NCBI GenBank assembly: GCA_964441155.1
Contig: CAYYKL010000001.1
Coordinates: 88,393 to 152,392 of the forward strand
Source of the DNA: an uncultured Pseudomonadales bacterium
GTDB lineage: Bacteria; Patescibacteriota; Microgenomatia; UBA1400; RBG-16-45-19
Length of the DNA stretch: 64,000 nt
Direction of reading: 5' to 3'
Shown: one piece after another, positions 24,254 to 64,000 of the stretch
Layout of the letters: every line of letters starts with the position of its first letter
Numbering within the stretch: the first letter of the stretch is position 1
Notes under the pieces: model-generated
Told to the model about the DNA's origin: nothing
Databases searched by the model: none
What the model saw: only the letters and a program-made list of their open reading frames with translations
Made by a program: the position numbers and the translations under genes

Positions 24254-24264
24254 AGGAATTTAAT

Positions 24265-25191: not shown

Positions 25192-25193
25192 TT

Positions 25194-26123: not shown

Positions 26124-26133
26124 AAGGCTATTT

Positions 26134-28019: not shown

Positions 28020-28021
28020 TC

Positions 28022-28837: not shown

Positions 28838-28863
28838 ACTGATTCTGTTACTAAAGGTTGAAC

Positions 28864-29760: not shown

Positions 29761-29761
29761 T

Positions 29762-30739: not shown

Positions 30740-30742
30740 TAT

Positions 30743-32557: not shown

Positions 32558-32566
32558 GGATCTATC

Positions 32567-36964: not shown

Positions 36965-37001
36965 TCTTTATATAATGATTGAGCATGAACCTGGAGCAAG
37001 A

Positions 37002-40334: not shown

Positions 40335-40339
40335 AGTTT

Positions 40340-41512: not shown

Positions 41513-41525
41513 GAGATAGTGGCTC

Positions 41526-41690: not shown

Positions 41691-41709
41691 AAGCATTCCT
41701 TCTTTCTAA

Positions 41710-42726: not shown

Positions 42727-42777
42727 ACGTTAACATTTTATGCATTCTGTTGTATCGTTACTGGTAGATTGTAAACT

Positions 42778-43080
42778 ATGCCAACTCCCTTGTACCGCAC
42801 CATTTTACGCCAACTCATGCAAGAACATGATGCTGAGTTTAGCGCATTTGCTAAAGCACATGATGCCTATCAAAAACAGGGCGCCAAGCATCAGGCCAAA
42901 TTTAATGAAATTGGCTCTCCTGTGGTGGAATTTTTGCGAGAAGGTGAGCGGCGCTTGTGTGGTAAAACAGAACGGGGAACATACTCGGCTTATTCTTCAA
43001 CCTTGGCAGAAAAATATTGGAAAGAAGTTAAAGCCTTTTTCCCACTCATTGACTTCGTTGGAGCAAAAATTTCTTCATAA
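42778..43080 (+). CDS. Hypothetical small protein
   Basis: 100-aa ORF with a balanced, helical-looking composition (MPTPLYRTILRQLMQEHDAEFSAFAKAHDAYQKQG...). I prefer it to the overlapping 152-aa ORF in another frame, which has an odd composition. No family recognised. Confidence 0.3.
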   Translation: MPTPLYRTILRQLMQEHDAEFSAFAKAHDAYQKQGAKHQAKFNEIGSPVVEFLREGERRLCGKTERGTYSAYSSTLAEKYWKEVKAFFPLIDFVGAKISS

Positions 43081-44278: not shown

Positions 44279-44385
44279 TGTCTTTATTGTAGACCTATTC
44301 GTTGATGTTCGAGAAAAGTGAAAGCTTTTTCAGGCAGCATGACAACGACAACAATGCGTCGTTTGCGCACTTAAGAATTGCCAAT

Positions 44386-46125: not shown

Positions 46126-46128
46126 GAC

Positions 46129-47745: not shown

Positions 47746-47890
47746 TTGTTCTTATCCATAAGCACTAGTATTCTACGATTATAGCTGGAAAATTTGAGAA
47801 TTTCTTTAAATGCCTTAATAAGGCACTATCACATGATTGCCAAAGTACAAGGCATATAACTTTTAAAAAGGTATCACGCTATTTAGTCGC
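47746..47890. promoter_or_regulatory. Divergent AT-rich intergenic region between two GT-C genes; probable bidirectional promoter
   Basis: At 145 bp this is the largest non-coding gap in the window. It is AT-rich and flanked by divergently oriented starts at 47745 (-) and 47891 (+). No specific -35/-10 could be assigned with confidence. Confidence 0.3.
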
Positions 47891-49690
47891 ATGTACTACA
47901 ATAACTTGAATATGCATGTATTAATCACAAAACAAATCCAAAAGAGCTTTAAAAAATCAGACTGGGCTTTTATCGTAATCGCCGCCAGTCTTTTATTAAT
48001 CGGAATCAGCATGAGGACACTATATCCAGGGAATTATCCCTTTGGATTCGATCAAGTGCAAATATTAGAAAACGCAAAAAAAATTCATCAGGGTAATCTA
48101 ACTCTAATTGGTCCAAGAACTGGTCCAGCGACTTTATTCACAGGCCCGTTGATTTATTATGCGACTGCATTATTCATGCCTTTTTTTGGTGAACCCTATT
48201 CTGTTGTTGTCGCCAGCTTGAGTTTCTCAATCATTACTGGTTTATTCGCGCTAATTCTTAGCATTCATTACTTTAAAGACAGACTTCTATCATTGTCGGT
48301 GACTGCAATTTGGTCACTATCACCGTTTATGATTCAGATGGACAGGATTTCTTGGAACCCGAACATCAGTATGCTTGCAGGACTACTGGTTAGTTTTCCC
48401 ATTTTTGCTCGACTACTCAACAACAAACCATTACGCTTGGGTGACGCTTTAATTGTGGGGCTAGGAGTATTTCTAGGATATCAAGCACATTTTTCGGGGT
48501 TGATATTAATTTCATATGCGCTCTTCGGCTGGTGGCTACTTCCCGCAAAAAAGTTTTACGCAGCAATAATTGTCTTTATCTCTTTTATGCTTTCATTGAT
48601 GCCCACAATACTTTTTGACATTCGTCATAATTTCTTAAATATCACTGGATTATTAGCCCTGTTTCAAGATGATAGCAAAGTTTCTTTACATGATTTTGGG
48701 TCAACTGCAGTCAACAACTTTTTCACCGTTTTCCATTTGACAGGCAGGCTTTTATGGGAACACAACAATCCACTATTCGTTGGCCTAACTGGAGTCTTTG
48801 TATTTCTTTTTGTGATTGCCTATAAGCTTTGGTCGGTTAAGCTTCGAGTCTACATTCTTTCTTGGATAGTTGGCATGCCATTTGTTTTTGTTTTTTATAA
48901 ATCAAATATTCCTGAATATTATTATCTGATACTCGTGCCTACCTTGCTATTTCTTTTGAGTTTTATCGGAAAAATTGTTTTTGAAAATCAGAATATGAAA
49001 TTGAAAATGAGTTTTTTTGTGCTGCTTGCTGCTTACTTGACTGCAGTTTCATTAACCAAATCTATCGCACCTAGCTTTACAAGTATTAAGGAAGTACGCG
49101 AAACAACATCATATGCAAAGGGCATGTTGGAAAACAATGCAAACCTCACGGTCGTATTCGACATGGAACCGATTGATAGCCTAGGCTACAAGTATCTTAT
49201 GAGAGACTATATAGATCGCTTTGCTTATTCACACACCTTACTCCACATGATCCATCCAGCATCTCCTAATGCATTCTCAGATTATCAATCAGGCAAAGCA
49301 GCTGTATGGGAAGACTTGAGAACAGATGCTAATGCTAATCACTACTTAGCAGACAGTGAATATATTATAAAAACTCCAAGGAATCTAAAGCTCTACAAAG
49401 ATATTTCTGGTTATGAGGGCTTTCCTCAAGCAGATTCACTTGCGGTGATTATGGATGGAAAAGAGCAAGCTTATCTCTTAATTCTACCCATTGCAGCAAG
49501 CGAGCCGAGCGCTCCTGAACAAGAAATAATAACTGCATGTTCGCAAGGAAAACAGCTCACCAGCAATAATCAGAAACTTAAGTGTTCACAGCATTATGCT
49601 CTTTGGTTAGAGCCTTCAAACTATAATGAAACAGCAATCATTGATTTGAGCAATATATCGCTCATAAAAGAAATGGGCTTAGACAATTAG
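47891..49690 (+). CDS. Polytopic GT-C-like membrane glycosyltransferase
   Basis: 599 aa. The first loop YPFGFDQVQILENAKKIHQGNLTLIGPRTG is paralogous to NDEASDLARLYQLGHNFKLTLIGPISN in 59773..61221. Confidence 0.4.
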   Translation: MYYNNLNMHVLITKQIQKSFKKSDWAFIVIAASLLLIGISMRTLYPGNYPFGFDQVQILENAKKIHQGNLTLIGPRTGPATLFTGPLIYYATALFMPFFGEPYSVVVASLSFSIITGLFALILSIHYFKDRLLSLSVTAIWSLSPFMIQMDRISWNPNISMLAGLLVSFPIFARLLNNKPLRLGDALIVGLGVFLGYQAHFSGLILISYALFGWWLLPAKKFYAAIIVFISFMLSLMPTILFDIRHNFLNITGLLALFQDDSKVSLHDFGSTAVNNFFTVFHLTGRLLWEHNNPLFVGLTGVFVFLFVIAYKLWSVKLRVYILSWIVGMPFVFVFYKSNIPEYYYLILVPTLLFLLSFIGKIVFENQNMKLKMSFFVLLAAYLTAVSLTKSIAPSFTSIKEVRETTSYAKGMLENNANLTVVFDMEPIDSLGYKYLMRDYIDRFAYSHTLLHMIHPASPNAFSDYQSGKAAVWEDLRTDANANHYLADSEYIIKTPRNLKLYKDISGYEGFPQADSLAVIMDGKEQAYLLILPIAASEPSAPEQEIITACSQGKQLTSNNQKLKCSQHYALWLEPSNYNETAIIDLSNISLIKEMGLDN

Positions 49691-49758
49691 GTGCAGATTC
49701 AAATTGAAGTCTAGCGTGAAAAGTGTTCTGATATGCGTAATTACGTTTTCATCTTATA

Positions 49759-51534
49759 TTACTTGAATTTTGCAAAATAATTTTGACAAAATTCTATTTG
49801 TGATTTCTTTTCTACAAGCATGTCTTGATGATTAGATAGCTCGATAAATGGTTTCAGCTGCACGTCATTGCAGAATGCATCATTATAAATATGCCAATAC
49901 GCGCCATTATCAACCACCGATGGAATCGTAAGCACTTCACTATTTTCATGTCCTTCACAAACACCTCTCCATGATTCATTTATCACGATAGCGTCTTTGG
50001 AGGGATTGGCACATTCAGTGGTAAATATAATATTATTTATACTTGATGTGTGATCTGAAAGTTGTTGAGCAAATTCAGATGATGTTTTTTTGGAGTAATA
50101 ATCCGAATAGACAATATAATTCCACAGCATTACAGGCACATCCACGGCATGAACATAAATTGGTACTAAAGGGTCAATGCTTCTAATTCTATCAATATAA
50201 TTAATAACGACACGCTCACTGAAATAACTAATATTCAATCCAAGTATGGGATATCTATAGAAATACTGGTACCCAAAGTAGAGGATCGAGAAACCATAAC
50301 ACAAGAAAAGCACTATTTTGGTTATCTTTGATTCTAATAGCCAGTAAACCCCCCACGCAATAAAGCCGATTAAAAGCGTATAGGCAAAAAACATTCTCAA
50401 AAGATACCATGAGCCTCCTGCATTAATCGTTGAGGGAATCGCTGCAATAAATATAAATCCTATTATTGAAATATGTTTATGAAAATGCTCTTTATGCCGA
50501 CCCATGAAAAACAATCCCAGCAGAAGTAACCCGAAATCTATTGCATAAAACCAGCCATGTCCCCAAACAGCAAATTTACTCTGCGCGGGCTCACCCGACC
50601 AGAACATCATCAGAGAATTAAATGCGCCTATAAATTTTTCCGTAATAAATTTTACGGTGATAATTACTTTATTGCTAAATAAGGATGCAAACGGATTATC
50701 TAAAGACAATCTACGCTCATTATTTGTCTGCTCAGAAAGAAATTCTGTGTCTTTAAAAATTGACTGAGAGAATCGATCTGCGACTGATTGATTGGGTAAA
50801 AGAAATGATAAATACGCCACAAATAAAGCTAAGCTCAGAAGTAAAAACGCTTTTATTTGTCGTTTGATTTTTTGACCTTCTTGGCTGGTTGCCTTATGCC
50901 AAAGTAATAAAAATAACCATGGAAGAAAAAGTAATTTATAACCTTGATAACCAAAAAAACCCACCGATATCAAAATAAAACTTAAACTTATTCCCCTCCA
51001 TGTTTTAGTCCTCAAAAATAGAGAACCTGCTAATAAATAAAAGAATACGCTAAAAACAGCATCATACATCAGTCTAGATAATTGCCACAGAAGTGGATTA
51101 AAACTTGCGACTACTAATACACAATTAGCCAGTTTTCTATTTTTGTACCATTCGTAAAAAAACCAACTCAAAACAAATGGGAATAATATCCCCAGCACAA
51201 GAGAGAGTCCCCTAGTAGCTAATAGTGGATTTTCAATTAGCCCGAAAAAAGGAATCATAAATACGCCAGGGAGTTCGGCATACATCGGATGAAGTGGTTG
51301 CAAACTCCAGGGGGCATAAGTTTGATCAATAGTTTTTCCCGTTAAGGCCATTGCTTTGGATTGGGCAGCATACACCAGTTCATCATGGGTGAGGGCAGCC
51401 GGAAAAACACTCGCCAAAGTCAGTCGACTCAATAGAATGCCAACTAGACAAGCCACAATGACAAAGATATATCCTCTTCGATTAATTAAATCGTATCTTG
51501 TAAAAAGCTTTCTTGTTTTCATATTAAGCTGCAC
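49759..51534 (-). CDS. ArnT/PMT_2-like GT-C membrane glycosyltransferase
   Basis: 591 aa. ALTHDELVYAAQSKAMALTGKTID after the first TM helix gives a D/E loop-1 motif. The track start at 51534 is GTG, with an ATG at 51522. Confidence 0.45.
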   Translation of the reverse strand: MQLNMKTRKLFTRYDLINRRGYIFVIVACLVGILLSRLTLASVFPAALTHDELVYAAQSKAMALTGKTIDQTYAPWSLQPLHPMYAELPGVFMIPFFGLIENPLLATRGLSLVLGILFPFVLSWFFYEWYKNRKLANCVLVVASFNPLLWQLSRLMYDAVFSVFFYLLAGSLFLRTKTWRGISLSFILISVGFFGYQGYKLLFLPWLFLLLWHKATSQEGQKIKRQIKAFLLLSLALFVAYLSFLLPNQSVADRFSQSIFKDTEFLSEQTNNERRLSLDNPFASLFSNKVIITVKFITEKFIGAFNSLMMFWSGEPAQSKFAVWGHGWFYAIDFGLLLLGLFFMGRHKEHFHKHISIIGFIFIAAIPSTINAGGSWYLLRMFFAYTLLIGFIAWGVYWLLESKITKIVLFLCYGFSILYFGYQYFYRYPILGLNISYFSERVVINYIDRIRSIDPLVPIYVHAVDVPVMLWNYIVYSDYYSKKTSSEFAQQLSDHTSSINNIIFTTECANPSKDAIVINESWRGVCEGHENSEVLTIPSVVDNGAYWHIYNDAFCNDVQLKPFIELSNHQDMLVEKKSQIEFCQNYFAKFK

Positions 51535-51546
51535 ATTTGTATTTTT

Positions 51547-53283
51547 TTATTTTTTTCTATGTATGAACAAACTATACAACCAAGCTCTGCCTCTCGCCAT
51601 GACCCTATTATTGTAATCAACTAAGGATAATAGGCCGAAAAGAGCCAATATTTGAGATATTAATCTCACTCTCGTAATACCATTGAAGCGTATGCTTACC
51701 ACTTTATTACCAGCTGATACGGGTAAAATAATTAATCCTTGGAATGCCTGCGTTGATTCGTAAATTTGCGTGACCTCGTTATTAACTTTTGCAATCCAAC
51801 CTGGAAAGACTGCTCGTTTATGCACGAGAAATCCACTCTCATTGATGTGCGCAAAATAGTTAAGGTGAGATCCGCTTTTGTGGATATAGTTTATTTCAAC
51901 TTCCTCTTGATCGTCAAGATTTGCGCTCAGTTTTTTTACAAATAAGGTTTCTTTAGCTAGATCAGGAATAGAGGTTAAGGTTTTAGGCTTATGCTCATCA
52001 AAGCTTGATGCAACTCCCGACCATTCAAGCCATTCATAATCGGACCTATAATTAGCTTTTTTTGGATAGCCATACGCTGCATATGCGAATATCGCTGAAA
52101 AAACCAATATTCCAGCGAGGAGTTTTATTGTTAAAGTATTTGAACGAGACAACAGTTTGGGAGTTAGAGCGACAGAGCCAATACATATGATAACCAAGAG
52201 TCTCCAGGGAAATTGGAGGTATTGCAAGGGTGCGAATGAATCCCACAATGCAGCGGTGAAAGGCTGCATTAAGCCGATAGAAATAAGAATCCATGCAATC
52301 CAAAGTCCTACGCTGTAATCTCTTGGTTTTTTTAGCCAATAAAGCATTCCTGAAACTAAAACCAACATCGGAAAAATCCCTATTTGCAAAACCTCCAAAA
52401 ATATGGAGCTTGAGTGTAACGATCTTCGAAAATCAAATAAGTTCCCGATTTGAATAAATTGATTTGAATGCTGCATTAACCATCCACTTTGATTGTAGCT
52501 AATCAAGCCTTTTTCAAGAATGGCCGGTATCCAATACCAACTCGAAATAAGCAATCCTTGTATAAACGAATAAAACGCGCGCAATGCATGAGATTTTGAA
52601 GCAGTTAACCAATGATGCAAAAGCAACATGACAAGAATCGTTGTTCCAATTGGCAAATGGCTAAGTAATAACCCCGCTACGCTTAGCGCTACACCAGTTT
52701 GCGCTAACGACTGTCTTGCAGTTGATTTTGTTGTTTCCAACAACCATAAGAGGGTCAATCCCAACGAGTATGCATACAATTCTCCAATCGCACCCCGCCA
52801 ATAGACGATGAGCAGAATATAGGGATTGATAATGCTCACCATGCCGATAATTGCGGAAATCGATCTTGGGAGTTTATAGACTCTTGCTAAATTTGTGGCT
52901 GAAATAACAGCAATTAATAGGGCAGTTAACACTAGCAAGTTGGTACTTTCCTGGAGTGTCCTGCCAGTTATATAAAAAAGCACTCCCATTGCATACGGCA
53001 ATGGATATATATAGTTAAATACAGGATATCCTAGCCCACTATTTAAATTTGGTGCCCATCTGGGAGGGAATTGGCCTTGTTTTAATGCTAAATAATAGTT
53101 TGCTAATCTAGCTACGTGGTGATTGTAATCATCTGATTCATAATATACATCCAATAAAAGCGGTCTAAAAAGAAATACAGTTAAAACTACAAGCACCAAT
53201 CCAAAAAAAATATGTGCAAAGCTAAACAACTGCCATTTGCGCCTACTTTTGATATCGGGCGATAACATAGGCTTGAAGTCCAT
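51547..53283 (-). CDS. YfhO/PTPS-related-like GT-C membrane glycosyltransferase
   Basis: 578 aa. YESDDYNHHVARLANYYLALKQGQFPPRWAPNLNSGLGYPVFNYIYPLPY, with a C-terminal AVFPGWIAKVNNE...AGNKVVSIRF domain. Confidence 0.45.
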   Translation of the reverse strand: MDFKPMLSPDIKSRRKWQLFSFAHIFFGLVLVVLTVFLFRPLLLDVYYESDDYNHHVARLANYYLALKQGQFPPRWAPNLNSGLGYPVFNYIYPLPYAMGVLFYITGRTLQESTNLLVLTALLIAVISATNLARVYKLPRSISAIIGMVSIINPYILLIVYWRGAIGELYAYSLGLTLLWLLETTKSTARQSLAQTGVALSVAGLLLSHLPIGTTILVMLLLHHWLTASKSHALRAFYSFIQGLLISSWYWIPAILEKGLISYNQSGWLMQHSNQFIQIGNLFDFRRSLHSSSIFLEVLQIGIFPMLVLVSGMLYWLKKPRDYSVGLWIAWILISIGLMQPFTAALWDSFAPLQYLQFPWRLLVIICIGSVALTPKLLSRSNTLTIKLLAGILVFSAIFAYAAYGYPKKANYRSDYEWLEWSGVASSFDEHKPKTLTSIPDLAKETLFVKKLSANLDDQEEVEINYIHKSGSHLNYFAHINESGFLVHKRAVFPGWIAKVNNEVTQIYESTQAFQGLIILPVSAGNKVVSIRFNGITRVRLISQILALFGLLSLVDYNNRVMARGRAWLYSLFIHRKK

Positions 53284-54889
53284 CTAAATACGTAATTTCA
53301 TCAAGTACTTTGAGATCAGACGTTTCAATTTCATCTAAGCATTGGCTTTCAAGCACATACACTGCGCCTGTTTCCCATTTCGATGAGGGCACGCAATGAG
53401 ACCTGTCAAAAACATACTTATCCAACGAATAAACATTTTTAAAACGAGCAAAAGGTTCTTGTTGCAGCGATTGTGGGCTAATTTGTCCTGACAAAAGAAT
53501 ATAAGCATATAAGGGTCTCAAATCACTGGTAACAATAACTTTTGAAGTGTTTGAAGAATAATTCTCAATCTTCTGTGCTATTTGGGTGTAAGGCCAGTTG
53601 CGGTGCCAAGGTTGGTATGTTTTTTGTTGAATTGCAAACTGACCAAAAAAATATAAAACAGAATACGCATATGCAATTACTAGTCCCCCGACTAATACTT
53701 GTTTTAGAGGATTATGAGACCTATGCGCAATTTGCTGCAAACCAAGCGCTACAAAATAAGCTAGGGGTAAAATCATTACAAAAGTGCGAATAGTACTAGG
53801 TGTTTCTTGAACAGTAAGCATCGCGGGAATAGGAGCTACCACCAACATTAAAATAATATAAAGCAATTCTTTTCTTCTTTGTTTTAATGCACTCAATATC
53901 CCTAAAAACATAAGGGGAAATTCCACAATATAGAAGGGGCCGTGAAAAGGAATTTGATAGCGACGAGGTTCCCCCCAATGCATAAACAGAAAGTCCGCTG
54001 AAAAATACGAAATATATTGGTTAAAAATCTCTCTAAAATAAAAATGTGGTTTGTTATACCACAATCGCAACAACCATACTGGGGCATAGTTCGTTGCGCC
54101 AGCCGTTTGTTCGAATATATTTGCAAGAGGAACGTCTGATGTAAAAATGCTAACATCAGCAATTCTATTCGAGCTCGATAACACAATAATAGAAAAAACA
54201 AATGCTGCAACAATAGGCAGAACAACTCGCAGCGCATTTTTTAATGAGATACTCTTGCGCATGGTCATAAAAAACAGACTTAACGTTGCAAAAAGGGGCA
54301 AAATAATTTTAGCCGAGTGATATGAATACATCGCAAAGAATGAAGTGGCAAACAAGAGCATGAGCATCTTGTACTTTTTCTTTTGAAGATATGCCAATAG
54401 CAGAACGATTGTCAGCAAAAAGAAAGTGAACGACATAATTACTTCTTGAGTTGATCGACTTATGACAATATGCCATGGCGAAATTGCTAATACAAAAGCA
54501 AGGATAATTCCCAAAGTTTTTTGTCTTAAACGAACTGAAATTAACCACACTAAAAAAATTGATGTTACTCCCAGCACAGCCGAAGGTATGCGCGAAGCAG
54601 CGACAGTAGGTCCAAACAACGAAATAAAGGGAATTTGAAAATACGAGTACAATGCCGGTTTGGGGTCAATTAGAGAATGTAATGTAAGGGGTAAAAAACG
54701 ATTGTCCTCATCCCTACCCGTTTCCAATAGAGAAATTGAATTAATTAAAAAGGATGCCTCATCGGCATGAAACCCATGAGGAGTATTACCCAAATCAAAG
54801 AATCGAACCGCTGAAGCGATGAATAAAACGAGCACCAACAGCAAATAGGTGTAATTCTTGGCCAAAACACCGCTTAACCTTTTTTTCAT
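53243..54889 (-). CDS. ArnT/PMT_2-like GT-C membrane glycosyltransferase
   Basis: 548 aa. RFFDLGNTPHGFHADEASFLINSISLLETGRDEDNRFLP gives a DE loop-1 motif. ATG at 54889 confirmed. Confidence 0.5.
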   Translation of the reverse strand: MKKRLSGVLAKNYTYLLLVLVLFIASAVRFFDLGNTPHGFHADEASFLINSISLLETGRDEDNRFLPLTLHSLIDPKPALYSYFQIPFISLFGPTVAASRIPSAVLGVTSIFLVWLISVRLRQKTLGIILAFVLAISPWHIVISRSTQEVIMSFTFFLLTIVLLLAYLQKKKYKMLMLLFATSFFAMYSYHSAKIILPLFATLSLFFMTMRKSISLKNALRVVLPIVAAFVFSIIVLSSSNRIADVSIFTSDVPLANIFEQTAGATNYAPVWLLRLWYNKPHFYFREIFNQYISYFSADFLFMHWGEPRRYQIPFHGPFYIVEFPLMFLGILSALKQRRKELLYIILMLVVAPIPAMLTVQETPSTIRTFVMILPLAYFVALGLQQIAHRSHNPLKQVLVGGLVIAYAYSVLYFFGQFAIQQKTYQPWHRNWPYTQIAQKIENYSSNTSKVIVTSDLRPLYAYILLSGQISPQSLQQEPFARFKNVYSLDKYVFDRSHCVPSSKWETGAVYVLESQCLDEIETSDLKVLDEITYLDGLQAYVIARYQK

Positions 54890-54973
54890 ACTTTATTGTA
54901 ACAGTGATTTTCACGCTTAAACTGCACTAGTTTAGACTTTGTAACCTTTAATCTATAAGCCTTAGGGAACTTT

Positions 54974-55636
54974 TTAGACCATTTTAATTTTGGTAATAAC
55001 CACCCAGGAGAATTGCTTATATTTTTCTCTGAAATCCTCATTTCGATATTCAAAATGAAGCGGACCATTTACCTGCGACATCGTTGCTAAGTCCTCCAGA
55101 AAAACCAAAAGGTATTCATTTCTGCTTTTCGTTCCATATAGGAGCAGGTTTGGAGTGACAACTATCTCTTCATAGCGCCAATCGATTCCAAAGTGAGCTT
55201 GCAAAGCGTTGCTATCCAGCGTATTTTCAAGCAAACCTTCTAAAGACTCAATCGAATTAGATTCGTAGCTAATCCAAGGCACAAATGAATCGCACCGCTC
55301 AAGAACCATCGTTTCAGGAAAAAAGGTTTTAAGTTCGCATGCAGATTTGGGTGGGTCAAACAGTCTCAAACCTCCATAGCCGATCAAATCTCTAAACTCC
55401 CAGAAAGTCCAAGGATTCACATCGCGATTAGATACAATATTCGCAATGAAGCTCTCTTTTCGAGAATGTTCAATTCTATTAAAAAAAAGCGCTCCTAGTC
55501 TCGGTTGAGTGAGACAATACAAGCTGATGATTATTATAGAACTTGTAAGGACTATAATTGAATCATTCAATACTAATTTTTGTTTGCGTTTCGCCATAAA
55601 CGAGGCACGCAGTCGATTTAAGCCATTATGAAACAT
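54974..55636 (-). CDS. Small signal-anchored protein, partner of the adjacent GT-C gene (unknown family)
   Basis: 220 aa (207 aa from the second Met) with one N-terminal TM helix (SIIVLTSSIIIISLYCL) and a soluble domain. It shares NPWTFWEFRDLIGYGGLRLFD with WFWEWRDKNYGFYTFD in 59105..59737. It is head-to-head with 55628..57340. Confidence 0.35.
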   Translation of the reverse strand: MFHNGLNRLRASFMAKRKQKLVLNDSIIVLTSSIIIISLYCLTQPRLGALFFNRIEHSRKESFIANIVSNRDVNPWTFWEFRDLIGYGGLRLFDPPKSACELKTFFPETMVLERCDSFVPWISYESNSIESLEGLLENTLDSNALQAHFGIDWRYEEIVVTPNLLLYGTKSRNEYLLVFLEDLATMSQVNGPLHFEYRNEDFREKYKQFSWVVITKIKMV

Positions 55637-57340
55637 AGTATTAGTATAATTTTCCTTCTGATTTTGTCCATAATCTTCTCAGGTGATGCTCTTTTTACAA
55701 ACCTTCAACCTGCGCATATGGATGGAGTTGTGCACCTAACAAACATGGCGATCTTTAAGGAAGCAATTGAAGATGGTGATTTCCCGGTGAGGTGGACGGA
55801 TGGGTTTGCAAATTATGGACTTCCCATGGGATCTTTCGCGCAACAATTCACTTCCTACTTTGGAGCCCTCCTCACCTTTCTCACCAATGATCTGAACGTT
55901 TCCTATAATTTAGTACTATTATCTGGAACTTTCTTTTCATTATTGCTGCTGTATGCAACTCTAACCATGTATACAGATAATCTTTCGGCTCTTGCTGGCT
56001 CTGTTGTCTTTAACTTCTCTAGCTATCGAATTATTAATGCACATATTCGTGGCGCCTTACCTGAGTTTTTTTCAAGTGTTTTTCTTATTGGTTTGCTTTA
56101 TACATCTGCGCTCTTGTTTAAAAAAAGAAGTATATTAGCGTTTCTTTTGACAGTTTTGTTCTTTTCAGGCTTGATATTAACTCACCCCATGATGCTAGTT
56201 CCCGCCTTCGTCATACTTATCCCCTGGACCATTTTTCTCTACTTCGAGTCAGCAAAGGTTAACAAACCACTTGAAGCTAATAATAGCTTAATTATCCTTA
56301 CATTAGGAATGCTTTTGGGTTTAACGCTCAGCGCTTACTATTCTTTGCCACTTCTGCATGATATTAAATATTTCTATTACGGACAGCAATCTAATCATAT
56401 TGGACCAGAAACGCACCTAAGTGTATCTGAGCTTGTCGAGCCAGCTTGGCATTATTTTTTTGTTTCAAACAACAGCATCTTGTCCAGAGGACATGTTATT
56501 AAATTTGGGCTTATTGAGTCGGGAATTCTTGTGTTTGGCTTTTTACTTTTAGTATTTCGCAGGCGATTCAGAATCAATAAAAATGTTAATTTGCTAGCCA
56601 TGGTCAATATCGTTGCAGCAACTTTATTGTTCTTGGTTTCTAGGTATTCAGTTGAATTATATCAAAAAATTAGTTTTCTCAGCTCGATTCAATTCCAATG
56701 GAGAATGCTTTCTGCCTTGATTATCGTGCCACCTATTATTTTGGCAATATATTTGAATTCTCTCAATAAAATCCCACGACAAATACTATTCTTGATTATC
56801 TCATGCAGCATAACTCTCGTAAGCGCTAAGCAACTGTATGGCAAGAATTTCCAATTTCTTTCACAGGATTACTATTATCGGACGGTTCAAAATTTGCATT
56901 CTAACAATATGAATACTATTTGGACGGGAGAGACTAGCACCTATCCTTCAAATCAACCACAAGTTGAAATAATAGAGGGAGATGGAGAATTACTCCAACA
57001 GAATTTCCACAATTCTTCACGTGATTATATTTTACAAGCGCAGGCCTCAGTGAGAATCCTAGATAAAACGTTCTATTTTCCGGGCTGGAAAGTCTATGCA
57101 GGAAATGAAGAGATTCCCATCGAATTTCAAGACCCCAATTATCGTGGTGTAATCACGTTTCAAATACAAAGCGGCCAGCACGCTATTCGAACAGTATTTG
57201 AACCGACAAAAACAGTCCAAATTTCGAATGTGATTACTCTAGTCACACTCATAGCTCTGCCATTAATCGTCCTTATACTCATAAAAATTAATCTATTGTC
57301 GAATCGAGATCACAAACGAGCCCTTGAGATGATGCATTAA
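55628..57340 (+). CDS. YfhO/PTPS-related-like GT-C membrane glycosyltransferase
   Basis: 570 aa. HMDGVVHLTNMAIFKEAIEDGDFPVRWTDGFANYGLPMGSF, with C-terminus FYFPGWKVYAGNEEIPIEFQDPNYRGVITFQIQSGQH. Confidence 0.45.
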   Translation: MKHSISIIFLLILSIIFSGDALFTNLQPAHMDGVVHLTNMAIFKEAIEDGDFPVRWTDGFANYGLPMGSFAQQFTSYFGALLTFLTNDLNVSYNLVLLSGTFFSLLLLYATLTMYTDNLSALAGSVVFNFSSYRIINAHIRGALPEFFSSVFLIGLLYTSALLFKKRSILAFLLTVLFFSGLILTHPMMLVPAFVILIPWTIFLYFESAKVNKPLEANNSLIILTLGMLLGLTLSAYYSLPLLHDIKYFYYGQQSNHIGPETHLSVSELVEPAWHYFFVSNNSILSRGHVIKFGLIESGILVFGFLLLVFRRRFRINKNVNLLAMVNIVAATLLFLVSRYSVELYQKISFLSSIQFQWRMLSALIIVPPIILAIYLNSLNKIPRQILFLIISCSITLVSAKQLYGKNFQFLSQDYYYRTVQNLHSNNMNTIWTGETSTYPSNQPQVEIIEGDGELLQQNFHNSSRDYILQAQASVRILDKTFYFPGWKVYAGNEEIPIEFQDPNYRGVITFQIQSGQHAIRTVFEPTKTVQISNVITLVTLIALPLIVLILIKINLLSNRDHKRALEMMH

Positions 57341-57343
57341 ACT

Positions 57344-59095
57344 TTAGAAGTCTTTTTTAAAGAGTCTACTTATATTCGAATAAAGTGCTGGTCTACTCGA
57401 AAGGTATATGCCCCCAATTAATCCCATTGCGATTAATGAAATCAGCTTAGATGCGAATCGAACCTTGGTGTCTTTATATCTTAAATCTATGCGATAACTG
57501 CCTTGAGGTATTTTGAGAGTCATAACTCCACGATAACTTGGATCTTGATATTCAACGGTTTGTTCGAGACCATCTATTAAGATTGTCCATCCAGGAAAGT
57601 AAAAGGTGTTAAAAGATATCCTCGAGGGTATTTCAGCAGAAACTTGATAAGAACGTTTCGAAGCTGTTTCTTTAATAATCCTAGCTTCCGCCGTTCCCTC
57701 AATTACCGTTAACAAAGTTTTTTGCTGAGGATAGTCCTTAGTCTCGCCCACCCAACGAGGATTTAAGTTTGTGCTATGCAGGTTTTCTTTGGTAAAGGAA
57801 TAATAGTCAACGTCATGATTCACATAGTTTTTTCCATACGCTTCTGGAAGCCTAGTTAAGGCTAAAATAATCAGTAGAGCAAGAATTGAATATTTTTGCA
57901 GCCGAAATCTAGCATGCAAAAGAGTAGCTAACACTGAAACACTAAAGTGAAATGACATCAAAAATCTCCATGGGTATTGAAGATTGGATAAAAACATCAG
58001 CTTTGAATACAAAGGCGCTGATAATGGAGTGCACAGGAAGAGCGAAAGTGACGCAGCAAAGAACCAAATTCCCAAGGCTCTATTACTTTTGCTTTTGCAA
58101 GCAAGCAAGATAATAGTGACCAATGCAATCAAATATATGCCAAGCTCGATTATGCCGATGGGAATAGGTCCAATTCTAGGGCCAGGATGATCGGTCAGGG
58201 AAAAATAGGGCCATTGAATAACCGAAGCACTCTTCCAATTTAAAAATTTATCCAATTCAATGAGAGATGCCCCCGATCCCTGATAGAAATACTTTGTCTC
58301 AATTATTAATGGAAACAAATAATAGGCACCTGCCAATATTCCCAGCGCAATCATGCTCGTCACCAAAAAAATATTGGAGAATGCTGATTTTTTTAGAGAT
58401 ATCTTCGAAAAAGCAATCGCGACTAGTAGTGGCATGGTTATGATAATTGCCATTGGATGAGTAAGCACGAGCAAAGCACTTAAGACTGCCACTAAAGCTA
58501 ACCCCCGCGCAGTTGGCTTGGACAAGCTTTTTGACATTTGAAAAAGCAAAATTGGCAACAAAGCACTTACCAATAGTTCCGGAATAGCACCCCGACTATA
58601 AATATTGATTATTCGGTAATGTGAGAAAGTCCAAACCAGAGATCCACCCAATGACGTAAGAGTGACTCGCTTTTCATTTGGCACTGGCTTTTGCAGAATA
58701 TTTTGCAAAAACCAGAACATCCCCAAACCACTGAATATAGTGCTGACTAATATAATGATTTTGAAAACTATATGTGGAGATAATCCCAAAAGCAAAAGGG
58801 TGGCACCAAATATTGCACTTGTTTGATGGGCAATTAAACTTAATGGATACCCATAATTCGCAAACCCCTGAAACCAAGAAGGAATTTCCACCCCTTTAAG
58901 AATTTGAGCGTACTGCACTGCGGTTGTAAGGTGAATGTGTCCATCAAAGGTTGTGGGAATTCCTGGATGGGATAACAAGTCAAGATTTAGCAAAATACTT
59001 GAGAAAAATATAATGCCATAGGCCCAAAACTGGATAGATAATAGAGCATAACTATTTCTTACATACTTGCTTACTTGCATGTATTTATTATCCAC
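57344..59095 (-). CDS. YfhO/PTPS-related-like GT-C membrane glycosyltransferase
   Basis: 583 aa. FDGHIHLTTAVQYAQILKGVEIPSWFQGFANYGYPLSL, with C-terminus FYFPGWTILIDGLEQTVEYQDPSYRGVMTLKIPQGSY. The track start at 59095 is GTG, with an ATG at 59080. Confidence 0.45.
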   Translation of the reverse strand: MDNKYMQVSKYVRNSYALLSIQFWAYGIIFFSSILLNLDLLSHPGIPTTFDGHIHLTTAVQYAQILKGVEIPSWFQGFANYGYPLSLIAHQTSAIFGATLLLLGLSPHIVFKIIILVSTIFSGLGMFWFLQNILQKPVPNEKRVTLTSLGGSLVWTFSHYRIINIYSRGAIPELLVSALLPILLFQMSKSLSKPTARGLALVAVLSALLVLTHPMAIIITMPLLVAIAFSKISLKKSAFSNIFLVTSMIALGILAGAYYLFPLIIETKYFYQGSGASLIELDKFLNWKSASVIQWPYFSLTDHPGPRIGPIPIGIIELGIYLIALVTIILLACKSKSNRALGIWFFAASLSLFLCTPLSAPLYSKLMFLSNLQYPWRFLMSFHFSVSVLATLLHARFRLQKYSILALLIILALTRLPEAYGKNYVNHDVDYYSFTKENLHSTNLNPRWVGETKDYPQQKTLLTVIEGTAEARIIKETASKRSYQVSAEIPSRISFNTFYFPGWTILIDGLEQTVEYQDPSYRGVMTLKIPQGSYRIDLRYKDTKVRFASKLISLIAMGLIGGIYLSSRPALYSNISRLFKKDF

Positions 59096-59104
59096 ATATG
59101 TTGA

Positions 59105-59737
59105 ATGAATTGCTATCTCAACAATTCCGCATTACGATTAATCAGCATGAAAACGAAACTATTTATAATCGCATTTTTACTAATTGGTGCTTATTTGAGT
59201 CTTCTTGCAAAACAGGTTTTTACTTCTATAAACACCTTATGCTCGCTAAACTCCTATGTACGAACCCATAATAAAATAGATGCAAAGTGGTTTTGGGAAT
59301 GGCGAGACAAAAATTATGGCTTTTATACCTTTGACAATAACGTGGTGTCGCCGGGAATGACGCATCGATTTAATTCTAATAATTCTGAAGCTTTTTTATT
59401 GGAGGCGTATACTGCGCCAAATATAAGAAGCGTTGATTATGTTGCTATTCCTAATATTACACCCAGCTCACTTTCCACAATTAAAGCACTATCTGCTCAA
59501 GAAAATAAGAATATCCCTATTAAAACTGAGTCTAATTATTCACTAAGCAAGCTCGTCGATTCAAATGTGATTCAACTAGAAACATCGTTTACAACGGAAG
59601 AATTGATGCATACAAATGGCTTATTTGATTTTTTACCCGAAGAACGTGAGCAACTCAAAGAAAAAGTGTGGAAGTCAGTCAACCTCATAAAATTTTCGCC
59701 CTGGGCAAGACATATGTGCCATCAACCTTTATTTTGA
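59105..59737 (+). CDS. Small signal-anchored protein, paralog of 54974..55636 (unknown family)
   Basis: 210 aa with one N-terminal TM helix (LFIIAFLLIGAYLSLLA) and AKWFWEWRDKNYGFYTFD. It is divergent from 57344..59095. Confidence 0.35.
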   Translation: MNCYLNNSALRLISMKTKLFIIAFLLIGAYLSLLAKQVFTSINTLCSLNSYVRTHNKIDAKWFWEWRDKNYGFYTFDNNVVSPGMTHRFNSNNSEAFLLEAYTAPNIRSVDYVAIPNITPSSLSTIKALSAQENKNIPIKTESNYSLSKLVDSNVIQLETSFTTEELMHTNGLFDFLPEEREQLKEKVWKSVNLIKFSPWARHMCHQPLF

Positions 59738-59772
59738 CAACGTGGATTGGCATTGCTGAAAATTTATCAGCT

Positions 59773-61221
59773 TCATTTTTGAAACCAGAACACTTTCCAT
59801 TGAGTTCTGTCTACAGGAAATGCAGCCTTTAGTGAAACCTGTTCAAAAAAATTCATTGCAACTGAATTATCATTTCTTAAGTCAAGCTCATCTCCAGTCG
59901 TTACAACATACAAACGGCTTGATGTGTCGTATTCAGACGCTTGCTTTAGTCCTATGCCATGCATGCCTAAAACATGGCGATACAATTCACCCATGGGGGC
60001 TTTGTCTGGAGAAACATGGACTGCGATATTGACATCGATTGTTGGATCAGTGTCTTGAATGTCTCGAATTATTTTTACTACTCCATCTACGACAGCAGGG
60101 CTAGGATGCACCCGAGTTTGAAACATTAATTCAGGAAGCTTGCTAACTGATGTAATCGACATAAATGAAATAATCACAAGAACCATAGACTGACTGAATC
60201 TATTAGTTCGTTTGGCAATCAACCACATGAAAAAAAACGGTAAAGCAGGCAAAAAATAGCGAGTAGCTATATTGTCAATAAAAACCATCATGCTTAGCTG
60301 AGCTAGGACAGGTGCGAACCATTTCAATGCTCTACGGTTGTATTTAAGGTCGAAAATTATCAGCATTGATACGAACAATACAAAAAGAAAACTTAATCTA
60401 GTGTTGGAGACTAAGTACGAAAAGGTTTCGTAAGTAACAGCAAGAAATCTTGTGAACAAGTGATCCAATTCTCCACTGACAACATTTGGAGCATCACCTG
60501 AAACGAAATATTTTCCAAAGAATAATCCAGGTGGATGTCGTAAATCAAACAGGACAAACGGTGATAATGCGATAGCTAAACCGAGGATTATAGCCATGAG
60601 ACTAATTAATTGCTGTTTCTTATTTTTCTTTGAAAAGATCACACTGACACACTCAACAACGAAAAAAGCCACAATAGCAACAATGGCTATATAGTGATGA
60701 TGCACCGATAAACCCAAGGATATGCCCGCAAAAAACTTAAACAGTGGTTTTTGTTTTAAAAGCAAAAGAAGAGCAGCGAAAATCCAAAGCGGCATGAAGT
60801 GAGGGTTCCATGCCCACCGCCCAGTTTCAACAAGCGGATACCAAACAATAGCTAAGAGACCGACTGGGATCACCAAGGATTTGTTTGTTTTATACGTTAT
60901 GAAAATAATAATTAATGAAGTAATCACACTCCAAAATGCTGTCCCCACTGCTGGACTGGCAGCGGAATAATTAAGTGCCATAACAAAAGGAAGCTGCAAG
61001 TAATAGGTAAGTGATCCAAAAACTTTTGTGTTGTCGTTGGAAATAGGGCCAATCAAGGTGAGTTTAAAATTATGTCCCAGTTGATAGAGACGTGCTAAAT
61101 CCGATGCCTCATCATTGGTAAATCGAGCGGTTTCAGCTAAATTAAAAAATCGAGTGAACAACAAAGCTATAAAAAGGAGAGCAAATATAATGAGGTGCAG
61201 CGACAGTTTTTTTATTATCAT
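59773..61221 (-). CDS. Polytopic GT-C-like membrane glycosyltransferase
   Basis: 482 aa. The loop FNLAETARFTNDEASDLARLYQLGHNFKLTLIGPISND is paralogous to 47891..49690. Confidence 0.4.
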   Translation of the reverse strand: MIIKKLSLHLIIFALLFIALLFTRFFNLAETARFTNDEASDLARLYQLGHNFKLTLIGPISNDNTKVFGSLTYYLQLPFVMALNYSAASPAVGTAFWSVITSLIIIFITYKTNKSLVIPVGLLAIVWYPLVETGRWAWNPHFMPLWIFAALLLLLKQKPLFKFFAGISLGLSVHHHYIAIVAIVAFFVVECVSVIFSKKNKKQQLISLMAIILGLAIALSPFVLFDLRHPPGLFFGKYFVSGDAPNVVSGELDHLFTRFLAVTYETFSYLVSNTRLSFLFVLFVSMLIIFDLKYNRRALKWFAPVLAQLSMMVFIDNIATRYFLPALPFFFMWLIAKRTNRFSQSMVLVIISFMSITSVSKLPELMFQTRVHPSPAVVDGVVKIIRDIQDTDPTIDVNIAVHVSPDKAPMGELYRHVLGMHGIGLKQASEYDTSSRLYVVTTGDELDLRNDNSVAMNFFEQVSLKAAFPVDRTQWKVFWFQK

Positions 61222-61267
61222 GCTATTTATAATTCTCTTGTAAATTGATTTTTAACGCACATATTCT

Positions 61268-63184
61268 TTATTTTCTTTTATAAATGATTGCATCACCTGA
61301 ACTGGTTACAACCTCAAAATATTCAGCGAAGTTATTACTATTTTCTTCTTGAGTAAATTTTTCAGGAATGTATAAATACATTATATGGTGAATTTTCATT
61401 AATTCATCAATCTCCTTAGCAGACATATTAACATCGAATGATTTTTCAACTATATTCTTTGCATTTACGCTATATATCTGGAGTAAGTCAGCTTGAGTTT
61501 GGTTACAATAGAAGCATGGTTTCCCACTCAGTGCAGGAATGATAGCCTTGTCCTCGTAAGGTGCTAATACCGATCCTGGATCTTGTTGCTTTAATTGCTC
61601 TAAAACGAGTAAGTTGGATTTGGATATAGCATATGCATTGGTCGTCCTCGATGAAATTTGATTTGCAATGGTGAAGATTGATGTGGGGAAAGCAAGGAAA
61701 CCAACTATTAACGCTAAAAGCACTTCCCGCCTCCCAATTTGAGTAAAAGCCACAATCACAAGCGGAGTTAAAAGCACATACGCATAATAACCAAATTGAA
61801 TGGTATTCCACTCGACACCAGACTGAGAGAAGAGTAGCGGAAAAAGTAGTGCGGCTAGAATCAAAACAATAAACTGATTTTTTTCAGGATTATTAATCCT
61901 ATGAAGACCATAAAATCCAATCAACCGACTTCCCATATTGCCGAGTATAAAGACAATTATTCCTGCAGCCCACAGAGCCGTTAGCCCGAGGTAATTGGAT
62001 TGTGCTTCGTAGCTTAGTCGCCTTAACTCCCAGCGTGGCAGATTAATGCGATCAGAGGCTTCAAACATAGTTTTTACAAACCATCCAGGATTCCACTCTA
62101 GCCCCGCCGATTGAGGCGACCCCAAAGTGGAACGAGCGACAACAAGAAATGATGCGATGCATACAAACAAAAATATCATCGCGAACATGATTAATCGTTT
62201 TGTTAGAAGCCATGCACCCATGTAAACTCCACCCAGAAGAAGTAACACACCGCCATAAGCTTTAATTCCCAAATGACTTCCAATCATGAACCCAATAAGT
62301 GCAACATTTAGCCTCTCAGGCTTTCGATAAACCAAAATACTTAAGTTCAGTGTTAATATGAAAAGTGAAAATGACACTCCAAGTGGCAAGTTCACCCAGG
62401 TAGATATGTTTTGATGCATCCAAAATGCACTCTCATTTACTGATTGTTGAAGGCCAATTAGTGGCAATATATATGCCAAGCTCCCTCCACCAATCAACAG
62501 CATTCCCGAGAAAATTTCTAACAAGAACTTTTTCTTCTGATTCAGCACATATTTTGACGGCAAGAGTGAAAAAGATAATTTTTTAATCCCATACAATGCC
62601 AATAACCCGAATAGAAATGGATATACCCTAAATACTAAGTCCTGGGATTTAATTCCAAATAGTCTCACGAACTCAGAACCGGATAAATCGACTAAATAGT
62701 GATAGCCTTCAAGACTGAATTGTGCAAATGTAGGCATTACTCTGTCTGAAGCTGATGCTAATGTTTCCATTAAGGCCATATGCCACACACCATCATGGGC
62801 GTTGACCCCATGAAAAATCATTTCTCCGTCTTTTATCCAGCCGGATAAAAACACCGGCATAGTCCAAATAAAAGCAAACATAAGCTTGAGTAATAATCGA
62901 GCTAGCACCGATCTACTGAATAGCATCAGAATCGAACCTAAACTCATGCTTCGAGCCGAAATTATGCCAATGATAAATATCGCAAAATTAATCAGGGTAT
63001 TTAAGGTATGGCTTGGGGATACAAACAATAATAAAACCCAAATCACATATCCCACTCCGAAGCCATAAAATAATTGCTCACTAGGACTATTGGTAATGTG
63101 CCGCGTAAAAAATTTTCCAAATAATGCCAGTGTCAGGAACCAAAAAAATACCTGAAATAACGGTGCAATAAATTGAATAAACAT
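61268..63184 (-). CDS. Large polytopic membrane protein with C-terminal soluble domain (possible GT-C)
   Basis: 638 aa with at least 12 TM helices, a WIKDGEMIFHGVNAHDGVWHMAL loop, and a soluble C-terminus of about 130 aa. Family not recognised. Confidence 0.35.
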   Translation of the reverse strand: MFIQFIAPLFQVFFWFLTLALFGKFFTRHITNSPSEQLFYGFGVGYVIWVLLLFVSPSHTLNTLINFAIFIIGIISARSMSLGSILMLFSRSVLARLLLKLMFAFIWTMPVFLSGWIKDGEMIFHGVNAHDGVWHMALMETLASASDRVMPTFAQFSLEGYHYLVDLSGSEFVRLFGIKSQDLVFRVYPFLFGLLALYGIKKLSFSLLPSKYVLNQKKKFLLEIFSGMLLIGGGSLAYILPLIGLQQSVNESAFWMHQNISTWVNLPLGVSFSLFILTLNLSILVYRKPERLNVALIGFMIGSHLGIKAYGGVLLLLGGVYMGAWLLTKRLIMFAMIFLFVCIASFLVVARSTLGSPQSAGLEWNPGWFVKTMFEASDRINLPRWELRRLSYEAQSNYLGLTALWAAGIIVFILGNMGSRLIGFYGLHRINNPEKNQFIVLILAALLFPLLFSQSGVEWNTIQFGYYAYVLLTPLVIVAFTQIGRREVLLALIVGFLAFPTSIFTIANQISSRTTNAYAISKSNLLVLEQLKQQDPGSVLAPYEDKAIIPALSGKPCFYCNQTQADLLQIYSVNAKNIVEKSFDVNMSAKEIDELMKIHHIMYLYIPEKFTQEENSNNFAEYFEVVTSSGDAIIYKRK

Positions 63185-63251
63185 GTGTAATTCTCGCTTG
63201 CGATATTAAGTGACAAAATAAACGAGTGTAATTATGAGTATACTTTAAGTT

Positions 63252-64000
63252 ATGCGCGCACTACATTGGTCACTTGTATCGACTTTATTTTGTTTCATAT
63301 TATTGCTTCCTGACGCAGCCGGAGCAAAAAATACACCCATCGCAACACAAAACTATCCAAAATACATTTTATTTGTTAATCAAGTGCGCGGTGAAGAATG
63401 CTGTGATCCCGGCAATATCGACTCACTTAATCAACAACTTGAAGTTTTTGCAGCACACAAGCTATCTGCTACTTTTGCCCTTCGCTATGATGCCTTGAAC
63501 CAAAAATTTGTAAATCCAATAGTAGACTCGAAACAAAATCATGAAGTTGCTGCATTTTTGGAAATCACCCCTTCTCTCGCTATGGATGCCGGTGTCGCCT
63601 ATTACGGCAACGCTGATAGTTGGTATAGAGCAAAGCATAGTTATCTAGTCGGATACACGCCAGAGGATAGAATCAAACTGATTGATGCTTATATGTCTCG
63701 ATTCAAGTCTTTGCTCGATTCTTATCCCAAAACCACTGTTGCGTGGATGATTGATCCCGTGTCTTTAGCCTACTTGTCTGAAACATATGGGGTAACCGCA
63801 CATGAGATTACTCGAGAACAATGGGGTACTGATAGTTACACGCTCCATGGTGGACCGCCCCATTATCCTTATTTCCCCTCACCAAATTGGACCCTTGTCC
63901 CGAGTGACCAAGCAAATAGCATGCCTCTAATTTTTCGCCAAACGGTTAGTGATCCCTTAAAAAATTATGGTGATTTCACTTCGGCTTTCACCAGTCAGCC
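63252..64000 (+). CDS. Secreted hypothetical protein (partial; continues beyond window end)
   Basis: My own translation from the ATG at 63252 gives MRALHWSLVSTLFCFILLLPDAAGAKNTPIATQNY... with an N-terminal signal peptide. The frame is open for 249 codons to the window edge. It is not in the ORF track because no stop falls in the window, and the track's 63274..63498 ORF is another frame. Confidence 0.4.
   Translation, partial: MRALHWSLVSTLFCFILLLPDAAGAKNTPIATQNYPKYILFVNQVRGEECCDPGNIDSLNQQLEVFAAHKLSATFALRYDALNQKFVNPIVDSKQNHEVAAFLEITPSLAMDAGVAYYGNADSWYRAKHSYLVGYTPEDRIKLIDAYMSRFKSLLDSYPKTTVAWMIDPVSLAYLSETYGVTAHEITREQWGTDSYTLHGGPPHYPYFPSPNWTLVPSDQANSMPLIFRQTVSDPLKNYGDFTSAFTSQ

Follow-up and report, generated by a model that had tools for sequence, protein, structure and literature searches.

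What role does a small membrane protein of no described family play when its gene starts head-to-head, within a few base pairs, with that of a large glycosyltransferase-like membrane protein, and when this arrangement occurs twice, side by side? The question is raised by positions 54,974 to 59,737 of a 64,000-nucleotide stretch of DNA (the window, meaning the whole stretch that was analysed) from contig CAYYKL010000001.1, positions 88,393 to 152,392 of the forward strand, in NCBI GenBank assembly GCA_964441155.1, which is titled as an uncultured Pseudomonadales bacterium and placed by GTDB in the Patescibacteriota (Microgenomatia; UBA1400; RBG-16-45-19). We refer to the small proteins as S1 and S2, to their large divergent partners as L1 and L2, and to a related contig of 122 kb as L001. 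We report that this part of the window consists of two S+L modules, arranged tail-to-tail and anciently diverged, and we give a little better than even chances to the reading that S is a dedicated, non-catalytic and probably extracytoplasmic partner of its cognate transferase of the GT-C clan, the two being co-made from a shared promoter.

Two head-to-head gene pairs in the window

All four open reading frames (ORFs) of the preliminary description are present in the ORF list at the coordinates and on the strands that it gave. S1 (54974..55636, - strand) encodes a 220-aa single-pass membrane protein, assigned to the S family from the ORF list, a sequence profile, an AlphaFold2 model and a syntenic ortholog. 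L1 (55628..57340, + strand), its partner, encodes a 570-aa homolog of PTPS_related glycosyltransferases (GT-C clan), as judged by Pfam. L2 (57344..59095, - strand) encodes a 583-aa PTPS_related paralog, the partner of S2, if read from the GTG at 59095, or 578 aa from the ATG at 59080, as called by NCBI. S2 (59105..59737, + strand) encodes a 210-aa single-pass membrane protein, a divergent S-family paralog according to the ORF list, profile and syntenic ortholog; NCBI calls the 210-aa form, and an alternative start at the ATG at 59147, giving 196 aa, is possible and is the Logan call. Each small protein has one hydrophobic helix near its N-terminus and no second one by hydropathy, in S1 corresponding to model helix 25-43. 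The start codons lie a few base pairs apart, S1 and L1 overlapping by 9 bp and S2 and L2 being separated by 9 to 24 bp depending on the L2 start used. At the other end the L1 and L2 stop codons converge with 3 bp between them (57340..57344), and a scan found no terminator-like hairpin there, so that the two transcripts must overlap or end within the opposite gene.

The small proteins form a family in Microgenomates

Direct comparison of S1 with S2 by BLASTP returned only an 11-residue match with 7/11 identical residues (FWEFRD..YG against FWEWRD.YG, E 0.15), which is too weak, so that their paralogy needed profile evidence. Word-indexed searches recovered one ortholog of each protein (68% identity for S1 and 61% for S2), syntenic on L001, which retains the complete S2-L2-L1-S1 order, together with two distant S2 relatives, and these six S sequences align end to end with two motifs in common. 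The six-sequence profile, searched against 1.84 billion cluster representatives (clusters at 50% identity), matched at least 316 clusters at E <= 1e-3, of which 237 reach E <= 1e-10; the matched proteins are ~190-210 aa long throughout and match over nearly their full length; a further homologue search with the S alignment returned only 11 proteins. An independent profile, built from the family without S1, S2 and their orthologs, matched both over their full length (E 1.1e-26 for S1 and 1.3e-20 for S2), which indicates that they are true, very divergent homologs. The tryptophan/aromatic motif from which the preliminary description had related the two proteins is therefore present in both, but it is not above chance by BLASTP when taken alone, and the homology rests on the profiles. 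The syntenic orthologs and the 316-cluster family likewise establish the small ORFs as conserved coding genes, a point that had been set as a test.

No match for S1 or S2 was found in Pfam, NCBIfam, PADLOC or PHROGs, a search of 110 S members against Pfam gave only scattered noise with no family model matched, the S profile had no match at E <= 10 among PDB sequences, and public gene records attach no name to the S proteins. The earlier remark that they fall in no described family is thus upheld as far as Pfam, NCBIfam, PHROGs, PADLOC and PDB sequences are concerned. The relatives all come from metagenome assemblies, and a genome scan with one genome per species, using a 24-sequence subset of the family as query, yielded 34 loci. 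All records with a lineage name fall in the Microgenomates group, as Levy-, Roizman- or Woesebacteria or simply as 'Microgenomates'; Levyibacteriota, within the Patescibacteria, is placed in that group. By sequence, then, S1 and S2 are bitopic membrane proteins of ~200 aa from a family that has not been described and that belongs to the Microgenomates, within the Candidate Phyla Radiation (CPR/Patescibacteria). We also observed 24 metagenome-assembled genomes (MAGs) in third-party (TPA) assemblies with S+L, among the loci L010-L042, that are titled 'uncultured Gammaproteobacteria' or 'Pseudomonadales'. Their GC content is 0.26-0.43, compared with 0.32-0.41 in the named CPR loci, their gene content agrees with that of the named Microgenomates MAGs, and their homologs interleave with those of the latter, suggesting that the titles are placeholder taxonomy. 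The window itself has 40% GC and most likely derives from a Microgenomates genome.

W79, R82 and G88 (S1 numbering) never vary among the 110 aligned members, and conservation reaches at least 90% at S131, G191, W211, P45 and F179; the family consensus contains the motifs ID.q.FWEFREFYSPGYF.F and EM.kANGFFDY...dKeL..gKyWLn.T.I. In S1 the transmembrane (TM) anchor occupies residues 25-43 (55508..55564, - strand; model and hydropathy) and is followed by the near-invariant Pro45 (93% of the 110), the signature FWEFRDLIGYG occupies residues 78-88 (55373..55405, - strand) in model helix 75-85, and the second motif, MSQVNGPLHFEY, spans residues 186-197 (55046..55081, - strand) and corresponds to the consensus EM.kANGFFDY (M186 84%, N190 79%, G191 97%). 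In S2, translation and hydropathy place the TM anchor LFIIAFLLIGAYLSLLA at residues 19-35 (59159..59209, + strand), and the signature reads FWEWRDKNYG at residues 63-72 (59291..59320, + strand). Judged by sequence, the invariant residues of S (Trp, Arg, Gly, Ser, Gly, Trp) hardly resemble those of a catalytic site.

Pairing of the small and large genes

We searched the six-frame ORFs of the 34 S-selected loci with hidden Markov models of both families. Two loci were not usable, S lying at the contig edge in L024 and both genes looking fragmented in L042, and the remaining 32/32 have an L-family gene immediately upstream on the opposite strand (E 1e-80 to 1e-184). Additionally, a 2.4 kb contig with a 30%-identical S2 relative carries a head-to-head L gene with 33% identity to L2 (E 4e-69). 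In the reverse direction, 80 metagenome loci were selected through L only, metagenomes offering ~280 L loci, and among the 72 L genes with at least 650 bp of upstream DNA a divergent S was present at 62. The scanned loci are the best-scoring ones and not a random sample, and start codons outside the window were chosen by rule. Co-occurrence of the small proteins with the same GT-C subfamily, which the preliminary description had likewise set as a test, is thus seen from both sides. The ten L genes that depart from the arrangement comprise one whose S is displaced, one that comes second in a tandem pair of L genes, and eight, representing ~5 contexts, that lie behind an unrelated same-strand gene. 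The displaced case is L109 (1488..3474), in which a 431-aa ORF is inserted and S and L stand 1.3 kb apart; it is the only tight junction seen broken with both genes kept.

Within the window, the S profile matches only S1 and S2, and distant PTPS_related-like paralogs at 44.4-46.1, 51.5-53.3 and 43.0-44.3 kb stand without an S, that at 51547..53283 matching the L family at E 2e-24. A conserved third gene 3' of S was rejected, 55/88 S genes having no same-strand ORF within 200 bp and the rest being heterogeneous. At ~12/88 loci (including L045, L046, L047 and L048) a PMT_2-like GT-C gene follows S in the same orientation, its start frequently overlapping the S stop; its product relates to that of 53243..54889 in the window, is too poorly conserved to belong to the module and could be a lineage-specific third player.

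Co-divergence of the two modules

The pairwise identities of S and of L correlate across 31 S-L pairs with r = 0.92, a value reached by 0/2000 permutations of a Mantel test, which keeps phylogeny in, so that shared species history contributes to it. As one genome holds both S1/L1 and S2/L2, the co-divergence cannot be put down to species phylogeny alone. L1 and L2 are plainly paralogous, with 31% identity over 538 aa (E 1e-69). The nearest non-orthologous relatives of S2 are the S2-like proteins of L045, L047 and L048, and those of L2 are the partners of exactly these proteins, with 44%, 40% and 46% identity compared with <= 33% for all other L proteins, while L1 groups with the mainstream L proteins (39-41%). 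These affinities indicate two old, separately evolving S+L modules, and the duplicated two-component module that the preliminary description had proposed is borne out.

The large proteins

L2 matches the PTPS_related family (PF10131) with 30.1 bits, above the cutoff of 26.4; L1 taken alone scores 22.7 bits, below that cutoff, with DUF6541 also just under threshold. Among sampled members of the L family, to which L1 is 31-41% identical, 18/18 match PF10131 (best E 2.5e-16) and 13/18 match DUF6541. The YfhO model (PF09586) matched neither L1 nor L2 nor any of the 18 sampled members, so that of the earlier label 'YfhO/PTPS-related-like' the PTPS_related part stands, with DUF6541 added, and the YfhO part does not; the window paralog at 44386..46125 does match YfhO (32 bits). 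PF10131 belongs to the Pfam GT-C clan (CL0111) and is of unknown function, and an acidic motif in the first external loop (EL1) is a hallmark of GT-C enzymes (PMC7801869). In the L proteins, D32 and H36 (L1 numbering) directly follow TM helix 1, in the position expected for the first external GT-C loop, and are invariant in 18 sequences, which would be consistent with a catalytic role. Other invariant features are R141, P145 and E146 (RGALPEF), H186-P187, KYFYYG, IQFPWR and YGKN, together with a C-terminal domain that carries TFYFPGW...QDP.YRGV. From these sequence matches, L would adopt a GT-C fold and act as a glycosyltransferase, which for this clan would mean taking sugar from a polyprenyl-phosphate-linked donor at the outer membrane face.

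The L profile found no relative among PDB sequences. An AlphaFold2 model of L1 built from 3 window sequences is of low confidence, with a predicted local distance difference test score (pLDDT) of 48, and displays ~13 helices, with a beta domain at 446-524 and a TM helix at the end, an arrangement compatible with GT-C. The basic tail (..KK..) after the last TM helix suggests that, as modelled, the C-terminal beta domain (446-524) lies outside, and this would be the side on which an outward-facing S domain could meet L.

Public calls (NCBI and Logan) start L1 at Met31, giving 540 aa and losing the first TM helix. When L1 codons 1-31 are compared with L001, 27/30 residues are identical and 9/13 nucleotide differences are synonymous third-position changes, and this coding-type substitution pattern indicates that TM helix 1 is translated, that L1 starts at 55628 and that the 570-aa form is real; the Met31 call apparently avoids the overlap with S1.

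Structure and topology of the small proteins

Members of the S family consist of a short basic N-tail, one TM helix, the conserved aromatic helix FWEFREFYSPG and a folded domain of ~150 aa; after the TM helix the hydropathy maximum averages 0.84 across the 110 members. The AlphaFold2 model of S1, built from a 110-sequence alignment, has a mean pLDDT of 86 and a predicted template modelling score (pTM) of 0.80. It places a TM helix at 25-43, a kink at Pro45 and helices at 45-51, 53-70 and 75-85, the last of which bears FWEFRD, and the remainder forms an antiparallel sheet packed with two helices. As modelled, the domain is compact alpha/beta and may remotely resemble the Mog1/PsbP/DcrB fold, the proteins compared being DcrB (6e8a), the N-domain of PA1624 (6td9), PsbP, LpqN and Mtc28. 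Sequence identity to these proteins is only 5-14%, Foldseek of the S1 model against the PDB gave no significant hit, and none of the 110 members matched the Pfam models of the Mog1/PsbP group (DUF1795/DcrB, PsbP, Mog1, LpqN) at E <= 0.1. Furthermore, S is anchored by a TM helix and not by a lipid, and the FWEFREFYSPG helix, the ANGFFDY motif and the tie to a GT-C gene are specific to S with respect to that group.

S is probably oriented with its N-terminus inside and its domain outside, because its order of basic n-region, hydrophobic core and Pro is like that of a signal anchor and because those members of the matched fold group that are exported or tethered to the membrane lie outside the cytoplasm.

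The shared junction

Across 71 non-identical junctions the spacer from start codon to start codon has a median of 22 bp (interquartile range 14-30, mode 19-24 bp) and carries a conserved ATTATA / ATTATAAT / TATTATA core, of which ATTATAAT is a perfect palindrome that presents TATAAT on both strands. We counted a -10-like hexamer wherever at least 5/6 positions matched, with A2 and T6 kept, and the hexamer ended 4-10 nt before a start codon, an E. coli-type consensus being applied here to uncultured CPR bacteria. Such a hexamer precedes the L start in 43/71 junctions, the S start in 31/71 and both in 15/71, compared with 77/1420 (5.4%) of control ATGs at the same loci, an 8- to 11-fold enrichment, and its distance peaks at 6-7 nt from the start codons. 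The signal is seen only once the junctions of many loci are anchored on their start codons; a generic promoter scan of 54.8-59.9 kb returned 14 sites compared with 16.3 in shuffled sequence, without excess.

In symmetric bidirectional bacterial promoters the divergent start sites usually lie 18 bp apart, according to PMC10268837, which cites Warman et al. 2021. With this geometry in the common 19-nt spacer (cac AAGGT TATTATA GAAAGAA atg), the L transcription start site (TSS) would coincide with the L start codon, and that of S would lie 2 nt ahead of the S ATG. By this analogy we infer one symmetric bidirectional promoter from which both mRNAs would be leaderless or nearly so. The likeness lies in the TATAAT-like element common to both strands and in spacers of 19-24 bp that fit the 18-bp geometry; unlike described symmetric promoters, the S/L junction has protein-coding genes on both sides, with starts at or within a few nucleotides of the inferred TSS, and an arrangement that is conserved across a whole gene-pair family.

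In the window, L1 and S1 overlap divergently by 9 bp, ATGNNNCAT (55628..55636; ATG AAA CAT, with an ATG on both strands), and the same ATGNNNCAT is found at 10001..10009 of L001, so that the form ATG-NNN-CAT is kept. On its S1 side the S1/L1 junction fits the family pattern, with a near-palindromic -10-like element at 55643..55650, AGTATAAT on the + strand and ATTATACT on the - strand, 6 nt before the S1 ATG; L001 has an identical ATTATACT followed by 6 nt and ATG, and a promoter scan match TGGACA-16-TATACT ends at 55643. The L2/S2 spacer contains TATTATC (59086..59092), which fits the family pattern. Read on the - strand it gives GATAAT, 6 nt and the L2 ATG at 59080 (Met6), and on the + strand TATTAT, 13 nt before the S2 start codon at 59105.

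Proposed role and alternatives

The role of a dedicated partner is argued for by the near-obligatory and exclusive pairing, the co-divergence of the modules, a fold of the binding type that bears a Trp/Arg/aromatic signature, and an anchor in the membrane beside a membrane enzyme. Among the three roles offered in the preliminary description (substrate, specificity subunit or chaperone), the evidence leans to an accessory or specificity subunit over a substrate. In such a scheme S would dock on the transferase encoded head-to-head with it, forming a physical complex in which it serves as an extracytoplasmic accessory or specificity subunit, and would help L to hold or choose its acceptor or else stabilise L. 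The two would be co-expressed from a ~20 bp symmetric bidirectional promoter, commonly with a TATAAT-like element and with almost no 5' leader, and duplication of the pair would give two specificities. A stronger and distinctly more doubtful version holds that the Microgenomates PTPS_related transferases are obligate two-subunit enzymes, in which the Mog1/PsbP-like domain of S and its Trp/Arg aromatic helix would dock on the outer face of the GT-C protein and supply recognition of the acceptor or the donor phosphate in trans, each pair having its own glycan specificity and being made in fixed proportion from one leaderless promoter.

Several observations weigh against a partner role of this kind. 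About 12% of L-family genes have no adjacent S, and in several loci (L010, L015, L017, L018, L021, L027 and, with a split gene, L013) a second L follows in tandem on the same strand with only one S, so that one S may serve two enzymes or the second L may work alone. Partners in stoichiometric complexes are more usually encoded co-directionally in one operon. The ~70 S-L pairs are too few for residue covariation, and the positive-inside rule is ambiguous for S, with a mean net charge of +2.2 before the TM helix and +2.1 in the 15 residues after it. The promoter logic is borrowed from model bacteria, with an E. coli-type consensus placed on CPR sequences, and is read from the DNA. At S1/L1 the -10-like element lies inside L1 codons 6-8, where a shared promoter fails to explain L1 transcription; L1 must there use another promoter within the S1 coding region.

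Among the other explanations, S could be a tethered binder of the lipid-linked donor, the growing polymer or the product, working in the same envelope-glycan pathway as L without being bound to it, much as Mog1/PsbP-like lipoproteins such as LpqN and DcrB are thought to act alongside membrane enzymes and transporters. We regard this as unlikely, since each S co-diverges with its own L within one genome, more tightly than a shared pathway predicts. S could also be the acceptor itself, an anchored surface protein glycosylated by the neighbouring GT-C enzyme, by the model of pilin genes that adjoin those of their O-oligosaccharyltransferases. Yet no segment of S is disordered or rich in Ser/Thr (the highest S+T count in any 20-aa stretch of the protein averages 6.7), the whole S1 chain is confidently folded in the model, with S131 in a beta strand, and conservation is highest at aromatic residues, Arg and Gly, as is typical of a binding surface or a fold core and not of an acceptor loop, all of which renders a substrate role quite improbable. 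A conserved N-glycosylation sequon or Ser/Thr-rich acceptor region was sought in the 110 members and rejected, the sole sequon-like pattern, W-x-N-x-[ST], being found in 53/110 and absent from S1 and S2.

The opposite topology, with the N-terminus outside and the domain in the cytoplasm, would have S regulate L from inside or couple it to sugar-activating enzymes; it would suit the conserved basic residues after the TM helix (P-K...K-R, the segment whose net charge is given above) and the cytoplasmic location of Mog1 and of the SciW/Eag chaperones, which have the same fold. Given the signal-anchor layout and the extracytoplasmic tethered members of the fold group, we consider it very improbable. 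Lastly, the adjacency could be a by-product of promoter sharing, with S functionally unrelated to L, as symmetric promoters are common and can drive unrelated genes (PMC10268837). However, a chance arrangement would not persist in 32/32 and 62/72 loci from lineages only 20-40% identical, nor would it duplicate and co-diverge as a unit, and we find this explanation hardly credible.

Relation to known systems

We regard L as a member of a known, uncharacterised Pfam family and S as a new family by sequence, whose fold may distantly recall a known one. The L proteins are like the PTPS_related (PF10131)/DUF6541 GT-C proteins, relatives of YfhO-type glycosyltransferases, in having a multi-helix N-terminal part, a C-terminal beta domain and a last TM helix, as far as the low-confidence model indicates. 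A further comparison is with Gtr/YfhO systems, which combine a GtrA/GtcA flippase, a GtrB/CsbB GT2 enzyme and a GT-C enzyme (YfhO/GtrC). As in those systems, a GT-C enzyme has small membrane proteins encoded nearby (PMC8035078, a review, and PMC5836110), and GT2 genes are found near some S+L loci and in the window; unlike in them, S is paired divergently and not in a gtr-like operon. A GtrA/GtcA-type flippase, with about four TM helices, was rejected as an identity for S, which has one TM helix and a folded domain of ~150 aa. No obligatory small partner for the PF10131 family was described in the literature searched, and literature on Microgenomates with GT-C and on PF10131 held no prior description of the S+L pair. 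As far as these searches show, no GT-C enzyme has been described whose gene lies head-to-head with that of a dedicated bitopic partner.

To our knowledge, almost nothing is known of the cell envelope in CPR/Patescibacteria, although the episymbiotic life of these bacteria is mediated by it. If the two-subunit reading were true, it would constitute the first dedicated heteromeric GT-C enzyme described in bacteria, as far as we know, and a lineage-specific piece of the CPR cell-envelope machinery. The new family and its rule-like gene pair offer an entry to the products of one GT-C subfamily, and suggest that some bacterial GT-C transferases may need a dedicated partner, which would matter for expressing them and solving their structures. 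The S/L junction would furthermore be a clear natural instance of an apparently leaderless symmetric bidirectional promoter that serves protein-coding genes and is kept throughout a gene family, and the comparison with L001 corrects a public gene call in which L1 is annotated 30 residues too short.

Genomic surroundings

The window (1..64000) is almost entirely a glycan-biosynthesis island, with a Polysacc_synt flippase-like gene, many GT4 and GT2 genes, GT10 and GT11 fucosyltransferase-like genes, methyltransferases, an asparagine synthase homolog and a hexapeptide acyltransferase; no tRNA and no Rfam match turned up when the window was scanned. Of its more than 12 large multi-TM GT-C-like proteins (PMT_2, PMT, DUF2142, PTPS_related/YfhO), eleven are encoded consecutively between 43 and 63 kb. 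Five multi-TM proteins of 482-638 aa adjoin the module (47891..49690, 49759..51534, 51547..53283, 59773..61221 and 61268..63184), and none of the five has a Pfam match. Close homologs of 49759..51534, of 59773..61221 and, judged by size, of 61268..63184 flank the module on L001 too.

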